Assembly (NCBI RefSeq): GCF_000027125.1
Contig: NC_017626.1
Length of the DNA stretch: 64,000 nt
Direction: 5' to 3' (one strand)
Origin: Escherichia coli 042
GTDB lineage: Bacteria; Pseudomonadota; Gammaproteobacteria; Enterobacterales; Enterobacteriaceae
This document shows, one piece after another, positions 16,305-16,971 of the stretch. The notes under the pieces are model-generated. The model had not been told where the DNA came from, did no database searches, and worked only from the letters and a program-made list of their open reading frames with translations. The translations under genes and the position numbers were made by a program. How positions within the stretch are numbered: position 1 is the first letter of the stretch; each line of letters opens with the position of its first letter.

Positions 16305-16664
16305 ATGCGCGTGTTTAAAACCAAATGGTTTGCAAGGGAAGCCAGGTCTCATGCAATAACAGATGAAGAGTTGTGCCGGGACATTTTAGAAACGGAACAA
16401 GATAAAGCTGATGTACTTGGTGGTGGCTTTTTTAAAAAGCGCCTTCACAAAAATCGTGAGCGTGCAATTATTCTGGCGAAAGGGGGAAGCAATTGGTTTT
16501 ACACGTTTTTATATGCAAAACAGGATATGTCGAACATTAATAGTCAGGAACTGGCTGGGTTTCGTGAACTTGCAAAGCATTATGCCTTCCTGACGAAAGC
16601 CCAACTGACAGCAATGATTAACACTAAAGAACTGACAGAGATCTGCTATGACTGCAAAAACTAA
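16305..16664 (+). CDS. RelE/ParE-superfamily-like toxin of a type II toxin-antitoxin pair (HigB-like gene order)
   Basis: 119-aa basic protein; 17-bp overlap with a downstream HTH gene; sits between conserved nepI and yicN. Family call is from overall pattern, not a search. Confidence 0.6.
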   Translation: MRVFKTKWFAREARSHAITDEELCRDILETEQDKADVLGGGFFKKRLHKNRERAIILAKGGSNWFYTFLYAKQDMSNINSQELAGFRELAKHYAFLTKAQLTAMINTKELTEICYDCKN

Positions 16665-16971
16665 ATTTAAAAGTCCTGCATTTGAGGCTATTCACAGCGC
16701 AGCGGCTGGATTGTCCAGCGTCAATGCTATTTCTGCCGAAACGATGCGTACTTTTGACAAAGCCTGCCTGACCAGCGTGCAAGACTTACAACCTGTTGAG
16801 ATAAAAGCACTGCGGGAAAAATTAAAAGTGAGTCAGCCCGTCTTCGCTCACTATCTCAATACCAGCGTTTCAACTGTACAAAAATGGGAAAGTGGCGCTA
16901 AACGCCCCAATGGCATTTCATTAAAACTGCTCAGCATTGTGCAAAAACACGGGTTGGAGGTGCTGCTGTAA
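16648..16971 (+). CDS. XRE-family helix-turn-helix antitoxin / transcriptional regulator
   Basis: 107-aa protein with a C-terminal HTH-like segment (SQPVFAHYLNTSVSTVQKWESGAKRP); overlaps the putative toxin gene. Confidence 0.6.
   Translation: MTAKTKFKSPAFEAIHSAAAGLSSVNAISAETMRTFDKACLTSVQDLQPVEIKALREKLKVSQPVFAHYLNTSVSTVQKWESGAKRPNGISLKLLSIVQKHGLEVLL

Follow-up and report, generated by a model that had tools for sequence, protein, structure and literature searches.

HigB2/HigA2 of Vibrio cholerae (higBA-2, VCA0468/VCA0469; PDB 5JA8, 5JA9, 5JAA and 8A0X) is a toxin-antitoxin (TA) module located in the superintegron. It combines a PF06296 toxin, a toxin-first gene order and an antitoxin, HigA2, whose N-terminal segment is neutralising and whose C-terminal part is an XRE helix-turn-helix (HTH). 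Mutagenesis identified the active-site residues of HigB2 as needed for translation inhibition (PMC5416850).

ToxP/AntitoxP (CBUA0028/CBUA0027), from the QpH1 plasmid of Coxiella burnetii, serves plasmid maintenance and has the same gene order, with overlapping genes. ToxP has been shown to be toxic and to block translation; AntitoxP, which binds ToxP as well as PtoxP, neutralises it, and the K79E substitution abolishes its toxicity (PMC10098735). PF06296 toxins upstream of YiaG/HigA2-like HTH antitoxins have also been described as "bicistronic relE-yiaG modules" of the PF_RelE family, with E. coli examples cited, and in the accompanying modelling the antitoxin N-terminal helices lie against the toxin C-terminal helices (Gerdes 2025, mBio, PMC11980606).

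Further toxin-first systems include HigBA of Rts1, HigBA of K-12 (YgjN/YgjM) and SehAB of Salmonella, which also pair an HTH antitoxin with a toxin of the RelE/ParE superfamily fold but whose toxins belong to PF05015/PF09907. [quoted passage not shown] MqsR/MqsA is likewise toxin-first, with a PF15723 toxin and an antitoxin that carries a zinc-binding half in addition to its HTH half.

Here, we compare these systems with a gene pair located between nepI and yicN in Escherichia coli 042, within a window of 64,000 nucleotides from contig NC_017626.1. The pair is already known, with RefSeq annotations in over 1700 complete E. coli genomes; literature searches with the neighbouring gene names, the COG number and the protein accessions returned no paper on it. 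The structural and comparative data make it probable that the two genes form a chromosomal type II operon of HigB2/HigA2 type, which represses its own transcription and encodes a ribosome-dependent mRNA endonuclease, and that it is an old resident of its slot that was lost in the K-12 lineage. As a member of a recognised TA family with two experimentally characterised members, the pair matters little beyond correct annotation. The additions made here are modest: assignment to the HigB2/HigA2 subtype; a toxin start at the ATG at 16305; a candidate operator, TAGCAC-N3-GTGCTA, found in three proteobacterial classes; and an apparent deletion scar in K-12.

Two overlapping genes under purifying selection

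The module consists of two open reading frames (ORFs) on one strand:

16305..16664, plus strand: toxin ORF, ATG start, 119 aa; PF06296 (RelE family; HigB2/ToxP type)
16648..16971, plus strand: antitoxin ORF, ATG start, 107 aa; N-terminal segment and C-terminal XRE HTH, HigA2/YiaG type

These coordinates agree with the original prediction of a basic 119-aa protein followed, with a 17-bp overlap (16648-16664), by a 107-aa protein. The toxin has a pI of 9.0, with 20 lysines and arginines against 16 aspartates and glutamates, and the antitoxin is likewise basic (pI 9.7). The exact toxin sequence is deposited as CBG36840.1 of E. coli 042. Initiation of the antitoxin within the last 17 nt of the toxin gene suggests translational coupling.

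Both ORFs are real genes and not chance frames, as established by: the end-to-end match of the toxin to PF06296; the occurrence of homologous pairs in all 80 related loci, each with an antitoxin homologue immediately after the toxin; and the pN/pS values within Escherichia (toxin, 0.23; antitoxin, 0.11; yicN, 0.02). Both genes are under purifying selection.

The PGAP/RefSeq annotation begins the toxin at its third codon, a GTG at 16311, giving 117 aa. Residues M1-R2 are at least 90% conserved across the family, and for this reason the ATG at 16305, which precedes the PGAP start by two codons, is the better supported. In the O157 allele, ATA stands at the position of this ATG.

A probable old resident of the nepI-yicN slot

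Two further features define the surroundings of the pair:

16172..17011, unstranded: variable segment, 840 bp here, replaced by a 41-bp filler in K-12-like genomes
17012..17086, unstranded: REP-like hairpins, located where the antitoxin and yicN genes converge

The nepI-yicN interval is 1003 bp here and 210 bp in MG1655, and so is short in K-12, as originally noted. Alignment to MG1655 by blastn gives 100% identity up to 16171 and 96% identity from 17012 onward. The REP elements do follow the pair, as first described, but they are shared with K-12 at 96% identity and are accordingly backbone, outside both the variable segment and the module.

The pair is present in 1716 of 5426 complete E. coli genomes (32%), with every copy on the chromosome. 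The same arrangement of nepI, toxin-antitoxin and yicN, in the same orientation, is found in Klebsiella pneumoniae, K. oxytoca, K. michiganensis, K. grimontii and K. indica, as well as in Citrobacter amalonaticus, another Enterobacteriaceae genome and an Escherichia cryptic lineage. The copies in this slot are mutually diverged (toxins 63-77% identical), roughly to the same extent as their hosts. The setting of the E. coli pair, in a conserved core-genome slot, contrasts with that of higBA-2 in the superintegron, and its chromosomal location with that of the plasmid-borne ToxP/AntitoxP.

The K-12 filler retains a trace of the toxin gene. Within its 41 bp, 17 of 19 positions match toxin codons 29-34, a score that none of 200 shuffles reached; a global alignment of the filler with the left 52 bp of the segment is not significant (67 of 500 shuffles reached its score). 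Among the genomes listed, all K-12-like empty sites share one 162-bp structure. Taken together, the diverged copies in the same slot, the toxin scrap in the K-12 filler and the single empty-site structure favour an old Enterobacteriaceae resident of the nepI-yicN slot that was deleted in the lineage including K-12. The short intergenic region of K-12 thus appears to be the deletion scar of the module and not the ancestral state. Where K-12 serves as a TA-free background, strains of phylogroups D, B2 and E (042, ST131, O157) carry one more module that is absent from laboratory strains.

The pair had originally been read as an accessory insertion, and a recent arrival of the 840-bp segment by way of a mobile element, into a short K-12-like intergenic region, would account for its presence in only 32% of complete E. 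coli genomes. The family is indeed mobile elsewhere: it occurs in 171 plasmid records, and one clade, shared by Enterobacter, Edwardsiella, Erwinia and Pectobacterium at 92-99% identity, adjoins an integrase (PF12835) and variable defence cargo. In E. coli, however, the junctions contain no integrase, direct repeats and target duplications were sought at the edges of the segment and not found, and no copy lies outside the chromosome. The occupation of the same slot, in the same orientation and with host-like divergence, in Klebsiella, Citrobacter and the Escherichia cryptic lineage also argues against this reading, as do the match of the K-12 filler to the toxin interior and the uniform structure of every empty site listed. 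We therefore consider a recent insertion unlikely, and the original reading half right, in that the pair is variable in E. coli. A phage origin was rejected, as the sole "phage" match is a mislabelled 515-kb Salmonella contig.

The toxin is a PF06296 protein with a predicted HigB2-like active site

The toxin matches Pfam PF06296 with an E value of 8.8e-38 (129.7 bits), residues 1-113 aligning to positions 1-120 of the 120-position model. This is its sole Pfam match, and it places the protein in the RelE/ParE superfamily and not in a non-toxin family. HigB2 of V. cholerae belongs to the same Pfam family (E 3.3e-8). Since the match begins at residue 1, the 042 toxin lacks the long disordered N-terminal extensions of the subfamily highlighted among relE-yiaG modules.

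The same Pfam search gave no match to: PF05015 or PF09907, the families of the Rts1 HigB, K-12 HigB and SehA toxins; PF15723 (MqsR); PF05016, the family of the ParE gyrase poisons; or PF05973 (Gp49/DUF891), a family that the original prediction had named. HigB2 itself shows a marginal Gp49 match (E 0.21). No NCBIfam or PADLOC model matches the toxin. SehAB was considered as a homologue of the pair and rejected, SehA being 40% identical to K-12 HigB and a member of a different family. From the earlier description of the pair as HigBA/MqsRA-style, the toxin-first order stands, whereas the Rts1/K-12 HigBA and MqsRA families do not apply; the precise type is HigB2/HigA2.

An AlphaFold2 model of the toxin (pLDDT 87, pTM 0.80) has a beta-alpha-alpha-beta4 core topology. 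The modelled fold matches the RelE/ParE (BECR) type and comes closest to HigB2. The PDB was searched with the toxin sequence alone and with profiles of 36 sequences and of 33 divergent sequences, in each case without a match, and the link to HigB2 is one of fold comparison and Pfam only. Overall toxin identity to HigB2 is only about 20%, and the beta2-beta3 loop is 6 residues shorter in the E. coli protein.

Each of the five active-site residues of HigB2 has a counterpart in the E. coli toxin. With the HigB2 sequence verified against PDB 5ja9_C, hhalign and MAFFT both align K49, R51, R64, Y82 and K84 with K44, R46, R53, Y70 and K72, although the hhalign result is weak (probability 5%, E 0.0075). 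On the strength of this weak alignment and the matching strand positions, K44, R46, R53, Y70 and K72 are the predicted catalytic residues. No divergent homologue compared differs at K44, R46, R53 or K72, while many homologues have phenylalanine in place of Y70; all five residues are intact in the 042 allele.

The E. coli toxin also has about 20 C-terminal residues that are absent from HigB2. This extension (approximately residues 97-119) comprises a helix at 98-106 and a strand at 110-114 and includes the invariant E112. It has been kept from Coxiella plasmids to E. coli. ToxP, the closest experimentally tested relative, is 30-32% identical to the E. coli toxin over residues 1-112, the C-terminal region included, but differs in having the longer Gly/Lys-rich loop of HigB2.

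The antitoxin resembles HigA2 and AntitoxP

The second protein is an XRE-type HTH protein, as first proposed, with a Pfam HTH_3 match at residues 52-96 (E 1e-7). Among proteins of known structure, its best match is V. cholerae HigA2 (5jaa; phmmer E 7.9e-10, residues 46-102), and the full-length sequence shares 55% identity with Coxiella AntitoxP. The similarity to MqsA is confined to one half. The match to PF15731 (MqsA) covers positions 52-123 (E 1e-5), the C-terminal half of MqsA, and that to TIGR03830 scores 41.0 bits against a cut-off of 61.8 and spans profile positions 47-119 only; the N-terminal zinc-binding half is absent, and the protein is not an MqsA.

Scores against two other NCBIfam models also fall under their cut-offs: NadS (NF041265), 41.3 against 60 bits; and YiaG PRK10072 (NF007481), 29.1 against 110 bits. 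By these profile scores the antitoxin is related to both proteins without being an equivalog of either. Among the PADLOC 2.0 defence models, only generic HTH matches were obtained for the antitoxin (RmrA N-terminus, HTH_VI), and none for the toxin.

Residues 1-45 are highly conserved in an alignment of 74 antitoxins and are predicted to contain helices at 10-24 and 30-40. By analogy with HigA2, this segment is the putative toxin-neutralising part. A model of a toxin-linker-antitoxin fusion (pTM 0.63), which carries no contact information, contains two confident antitoxin N-terminal helices (pLDDT about 90). The PF06296 match, the fold, the active-site residues and the HigA2-like HTH partner together support the proposal of a toxin-first type II pair.

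A conserved palindrome and candidate promoter precede the toxin gene

Three elements can be read upstream of the toxin start:

16257..16285, unstranded: imperfect palindrome TAAAGTATTGCAC-ttg-GTGATATACTTTA, putative operator for an antitoxin HTH dimer
16274..16282, plus strand: TGaTATACT, an extended -10-like element (TGnTATAAT type) that overlaps the palindrome's right arm
16291..16294, plus strand: Shine-Dalgarno-like AGGA, 10 nt before the toxin ATG

The palindrome, detected by a repeat search, has 13-nt arms that are 85% complementary. Of 79 related loci from the alpha-, beta- and gamma-proteobacteria, 75 have its CAC-N3-GTG core no more than 90 nt ahead of the toxin gene, as compared with a background frequency of 0.32 per kb; the consensus around this core is TAGCAC-N3-GTGCTA. 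A matching motif, CAC-N3-GTGATATAGT, is present in the Coxiella toxP promoter, and AntitoxP binds a fragment of that promoter containing the motif in an electrophoretic mobility shift assay (PMC10098735). The half-sites in E. coli are TTGCAC and GTGATA, as compared with TAGCAC and GTGCTA in the family consensus; the antitoxin recognition helix is unchanged although these half-sites deviate.

The element at 16274-16282 is a putative operon promoter. A simple sigma-70 scan, in which a -35 element is required, did not call it and returned only an intragenic promoter-like site, so the proposal rests on conservation of the extended -10: an equivalent TGcTATAGT occurs at the same distance in other loci. 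Most Enterobacterales loci also have ACAGGATG conserved ahead of the toxin start. The gene nepI is divergent from the pair, with its promoter approximately 220 bp from the toxin start, and the operator is located between them. In the repeat search, no further copy of the palindrome was found nearer nepI, where there is only a weak direct repeat (16218-16230).

Proposed mechanism and alternatives

Toxicity, RNase chemistry, neutralisation and autorepression are inferred from V. cholerae HigBA2 and Coxiella ToxP/AntitoxP. By this analogy, a single promoter, with its extended -10 at about 16274-16282, would yield a bicistronic mRNA with the toxin first. The free toxin, with its RelE fold, would enter the ribosomal A site and cut the mRNA under translation, using K44, R46, R53, Y70 and K72 in the roles of their HigB2 counterparts, and translation and growth would halt. 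The antitoxin would act in two ways: its conserved N-terminal 45 residues would bind the toxin; and a dimer would sit, through the C-terminal HTH, on the palindrome at 16257-16285, where the overlap with the -10 would allow repression of the operon. A drop in antitoxin supply, through proteolysis or blocked synthesis, would then free the toxin. Selfish maintenance, a stress response and phage defence are all possible roles for the pair.

The first alternative retains a true TA module but gives the toxin a target other than ribosomal mRNA, either an RNA-processing enzyme, as for SehA, or gyrase, as for ParE, perhaps reached through the C-terminal extension. This extension, with its invariant E112, lies beyond the part shared with HigB2, and in SehA, which has no RNase activity, the critical residues are in an extra C-terminal helix (PMC12817084). 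That Y70 is not invariant in the family would fit such a change of target, as would the placement of antitoxin helices on the toxin C-terminal helices in the published models (PMC11980606). SehA, however, comes from another family, and no Pfam ParE match was obtained. K44, R46, R53 and K72 do not vary even among deeply diverged homologues and fall on the proven catalytic set of HigB2. Furthermore, ToxP has this C-terminal region as far as residue 112 and yet inhibits cell-free translation, and it is inactivated by a change at the lysine equivalent to K72. We judge a different target to be quite unlikely.

We regard as similarly improbable that the module is attenuated or decaying in E. coli, with a weak or silent toxin and with selection acting mainly on the HTH protein as a transcription factor, perhaps at the nepI promoter. 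Several observations point in this direction. The antitoxin is better conserved than the toxin, with identities of about 80% and 67%, respectively, to other Enterobacterales homologues and of 55% and 32% to the Coxiella proteins; the toxin pN/pS is twice that of the antitoxin; and the Escherichia toxin forms a long branch relative to all other toxins compared. In addition, the ATG is lost in the O157 allele, strain ECOD1 has a frameshifted toxin beside an intact antitoxin, the pair is absent from two thirds of E. coli genomes, and the candidate operator is placed between divergent genes. The toxin pN/pS of 0.23 nevertheless indicates purifying selection still, and the catalytic-equivalent residues all persist in the 042 allele. 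Apart from ECOD1, the six Escherichia alleles examined all have an intact toxin ORF, and nearer nepI there is only the weak direct repeat at 16218-16230, with no second palindrome.

Elements of both alternatives might be added to the favoured HigB2/HigA2-type operon. The C-terminal extension could confer a different target or mode of control, involving for example an RNA-processing factor, and the antitoxin, unusually well conserved and placed back to back with nepI, could also regulate that gene, which encodes a purine-nucleoside exporter; we consider this combination very unlikely.

At the downstream end of the operon, a terminator scan called no canonical terminator after the pair. The RNA fold of the REP-like hairpins at 17012-17086 has an energy of -41.1 kcal/mol (z -2.6), and these hairpins may serve as the transcript end or as a stabiliser. 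The REP core recurs in the window at 56531.

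A HigB2/HigA2-type gene pair between nepI and yicN

Two overlapping genes occupy the nepI-yicN interval:

16305-16664, + strand: toxin ORF, 119 aa, basic (pI 9.0)
16648-16971, + strand: antitoxin ORF, 107 aa, basic (pI 9.7)
14893-16083/16125, - strand: nepI, on one side of the pair
17087-17539/17566, - strand: yicN, on the other side

The original prediction of a 119-aa basic protein followed, with a 17-nt overlap, by a 107-aa protein is accurate. Its toxin-antitoxin interpretation is supported, and is here refined to the HigB2/HigA2 type. The pair is of an already known kind and was annotated in RefSeq before this analysis, the toxin as 'type II toxin-antitoxin system RelE/ParE family toxin' and the antitoxin as 'helix-turn-helix domain-containing protein'; the toxin is identical in sequence to CBG36840.1 of E. 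coli strain 042. Literature searches found no experimental work on this E. coli pair itself.

With one genome scanned per species, 445 relatives were confirmed. Among the best 80 of these, from Enterobacterales and beta- and alpha-proteobacteria, an antitoxin homologue lies directly downstream of the toxin in every case (80/80). Across six or seven Escherichia alleles, the toxin has a pN/pS of 0.23, the antitoxin 0.11 and yicN 0.02.

Toxin family, predicted fold and putative active site

The sole Pfam match of the toxin is PF06296 ('RelE toxin of RelE/RelB'; E 8.8e-38, entire model covered), and no NCBIfam or PADLOC model matches it. An AlphaFold2 model built from an alignment of 36 homologues is confident (pLDDT 87, pTM 0.80) and predicts a beta-alpha-alpha-beta4 core, with two helices and one strand after it. 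The top seven Foldseek matches to this model are all chains of Vibrio cholerae HigB2, which also belongs to PF06296 but with a weaker score (E 3e-8, model positions 8-96). The relationship is remote, as PDB sequence searches with the toxin, profiles included, gave no match.

HigB2 is a ribosome-dependent mRNase (PMC5416850), and its inhibition of translation requires K49, R51, R64, Y82 and K84 (PMC5416850; residue list also in PMC10098735). The HigB2 sequence used for alignment is identical to PDB 5ja9_C. By hhalign and MAFFT, these residues correspond to K44, R46, R53, Y70 and K72 of the window toxin, respectively, and the local motif LYAKQDMSNI parallels IYGKNEMSDL of HigB2. K44, R46, R53 and K72 are invariant in homologues as distant as 34% identity, while position 70 is Y or F.

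PGAP places the toxin start at a GTG at codon 3 in all genomes examined. In O157 AR-0428 (L083 2680-2682), ATA replaces the toxin ATG and the codon-3 GTG remains; in strain ECOD1 (L084 2731-3038), the toxin is frameshifted and the antitoxin intact. Both alleles point to occasional attenuation of the toxin.

Antitoxin and characterized relatives

The antitoxin carries an HTH_3 domain at residues 52-96. Its C-terminal half is similar to the HTH portion of MqsA, but it scores below the cut-off of the curated NCBIfam models for NadS, the MqsA family and YiaG/PRK10072. Among solved structures, V. cholerae HigA2 is the closest relative (E 8e-10, residues 46-102); the disordered N-terminus of HigA2 neutralizes HigB2, and its HTH domain dimerizes and binds DNA (PMC5416850). 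The N-terminal 45 residues of the window antitoxin (KFKSPAFEAIHSAA.GL...) are strongly conserved across 74 homologues and form two confident helices in a toxin-linker-antitoxin model. We infer neutralization through the N-terminal segment from HigA2 (PMC5416850) and from modelling reported by Gerdes (PMC11980606).

In Coxiella burnetii, ToxP/AntitoxP are encoded on plasmid QpH1; ToxP is toxic and inhibits cell-free translation, its toxicity is lost with K79E, and AntitoxP, which rescues from ToxP, binds ToxP as well as the toxP promoter (PMC10098735). Gerdes (2025) treats PF06296 as the toxin-first 'PF_RelE' family and describes relE-yiaG bicistronic modules, some from E. coli (PMC11980606). 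The Salmonella SehAB pair, the first-suspected homologue, was ruled out as a different family.

The antitoxin is more conserved than the toxin throughout, at ~80% versus 67% identity within Enterobacterales and 55% (AntitoxP, full length) versus 32% (ToxP, 30-32% over toxin residues 1-112) to the Coxiella pair, and both window proteins are basic. Antitoxins are usually pictured as fast-evolving and acidic, the reverse of the conservation and charge seen here.

Putative operator and proposed mechanism

A CAC-N3-GTG palindrome lies within 90 nt upstream of the toxin gene in 75/79 loci (background rate, 0.32 per kb), with the longer GCAC-N3-GTGC form in 61 of the 79. As the family consensus reads TAGCAC-N3-GTGCTATAGT, the right arm merges into an extended -10-like TGnTATAGT. 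The Coxiella toxP promoter, TTGACA...TTCACTtAGTGATATAGT, has the same motif as E. coli. In the window, the feature is:

16257-16285, no strand assigned: putative operator, palindrome TAAAGTATTGCAC-ttg-GTGATATACTTTA, half-sites slightly off consensus

The Escherichia half-sites are TTGCAC/GTGATA (16264-16282) versus the TAGCAC/GTGCTA consensus (L005-L042 upstream regions), with no change in the antitoxin recognition helix NTSVSTVQKWESG; the strength of repression might thus be different. The GTGATATAG variant is common to the Escherichia operator and the Coxiella promoter.

The analysis shows the two genes, their family, predicted fold and key residues, their pairing, the conservation of the putative operator, and selection; the biochemical steps are taken from HigBA2 and ToxP/AntitoxP. 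In the proposed module, a bicistronic type II operon that represses itself, free toxin would cut mRNA in the ribosomal A site via K44, R46, R53, Y70 and K72; the antitoxin N-terminus would sequester it; and the antitoxin HTH dimer would sit on the palindrome, covering the -10 element.

Origin of the nepI-yicN copy

The pair had been proposed to be an accessory insertion followed by REP elements, in a region short in K-12. The MG1655 interval is indeed only 210 bp. The window is 100% identical to MG1655 up to 16171 and 96% from 17012 on, with 840 bp between these points versus 41 bp in K-12. REP-like hairpins do follow the pair (17012-17086), but K-12 has them too.

The accessory-insertion reading is largely unsupported. 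The full interval occurs in 1716/5426 complete E. coli genomes, chromosomal every time; nearly all others, among the matches listed, match at the flanks only, with K-12's 162-bp structure. Carriers include O25b:H4-ST131, O157 and 042, and non-carriers K-12, DH5alpha, O104:H4 and O111:H8; we take the named non-carriers to be phylogroups A and B1, and the carriers B2, E and D. The same gene order is found in Klebsiella pneumoniae, K. oxytoca, K. michiganensis, K. grimontii, K. indica, Citrobacter amalonaticus, another Enterobacteriaceae genome and Escherichia sp. E1V33, and the copies have diverged (toxins 63-77% identical). Neither integrase nor junction repeat is present at the E. coli junctions. 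The K-12 filler (L001 3835-3875) includes a 19-nt stretch, GAAACGGAACAGGGCAAAG, corresponding to window 16389-16407 and matching toxin codons 29-34 at 17/19 positions (ST131 and 2012C-4221 alleles), a score reached by 0/200 shuffles; in laboratory E. coli the filler resembles a scar left by deletion of the toxin gene. Together, this distribution, shared slot, divergence, lack of integrase or repeats and K-12 scrap make it more likely that the pair is long established at this site and was deleted in one E. coli lineage than that it was recently inserted.

Two ~1-kb contigs with nepI-TA-yicN sequence (L002, L043) in the actinobacterial MAG 'Collinsella sp. Map_57_008', one Escherichia-type (93/99% identity) and one Klebsiella-type, are almost certainly bin contamination.

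A mobile clade of the same family

Outside the nepI slot, a second clade comprises copies that are 92-99% identical although their hosts, Enterobacter, Edwardsiella, Erwinia, Pluralibacter and Pectobacterium, span different Enterobacterales families. A 292-aa integrase (PF12835 + PF12834) precedes the pair by ~1 kb in at least 15 loci; these include L005 826-7858, L017 2109-8221, L006, L007, L014, L016, L021, L024, L025, L027, L030, L032 and L035. The cargo that follows varies, from a SIR2-HerA anti-phage pair (L005) to a 1061-aa HSP90-like ATPase (L017), and the clade resembles a small integrative element, or a hotspot, whose defence cargo can be exchanged. Plasmids of Rhizobiales, Coxiella and Legionella also commonly carry the family.

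Other observations in and around the window

No Rfam match reaches the gathering score within 16000-17200; elsewhere in the window, four do:

31552-31681, - strand: istR (tisB/istR type I TA antitoxin RNA)
46359-46431, - strand: ROSE_2 thermoregulator
56563-56605, + strand: ES036 sRNA
62082-62162, + strand: AsdA (dnaA antisense RNA)

The nepI ORF (14893-16125, -) is 410 aa from the upstream ATG at 16125, a mechanical call; the RefSeq protein has 396 aa (K-12) or 394 aa (2012C-4221), and 3' ends differ by strain (1185-nt versus 1191-nt CDS). The sequence upstream of nepI differs between carriers and non-carriers, as the 840-bp segment begins 46-88 bp upstream of its start. Directly upstream of nepI, a 3806-aa ORF (3271-14691, -) contains many near-identical ~100-aa repeats, whose number varies between strains; its homologue in the closest complete genome, 2012C-4221, is RefSeq 'inverse autotransporter adhesin IatC', only 2428 aa, and yicS-nlpA occupies this position in K-12, ST131 and O157. 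Thus nepI lies between two stretches of variable DNA, the adhesin ORF and the TA segment. In O157 AR-0428, adeQ is annotated as frameshifted (L083 3967-5300).
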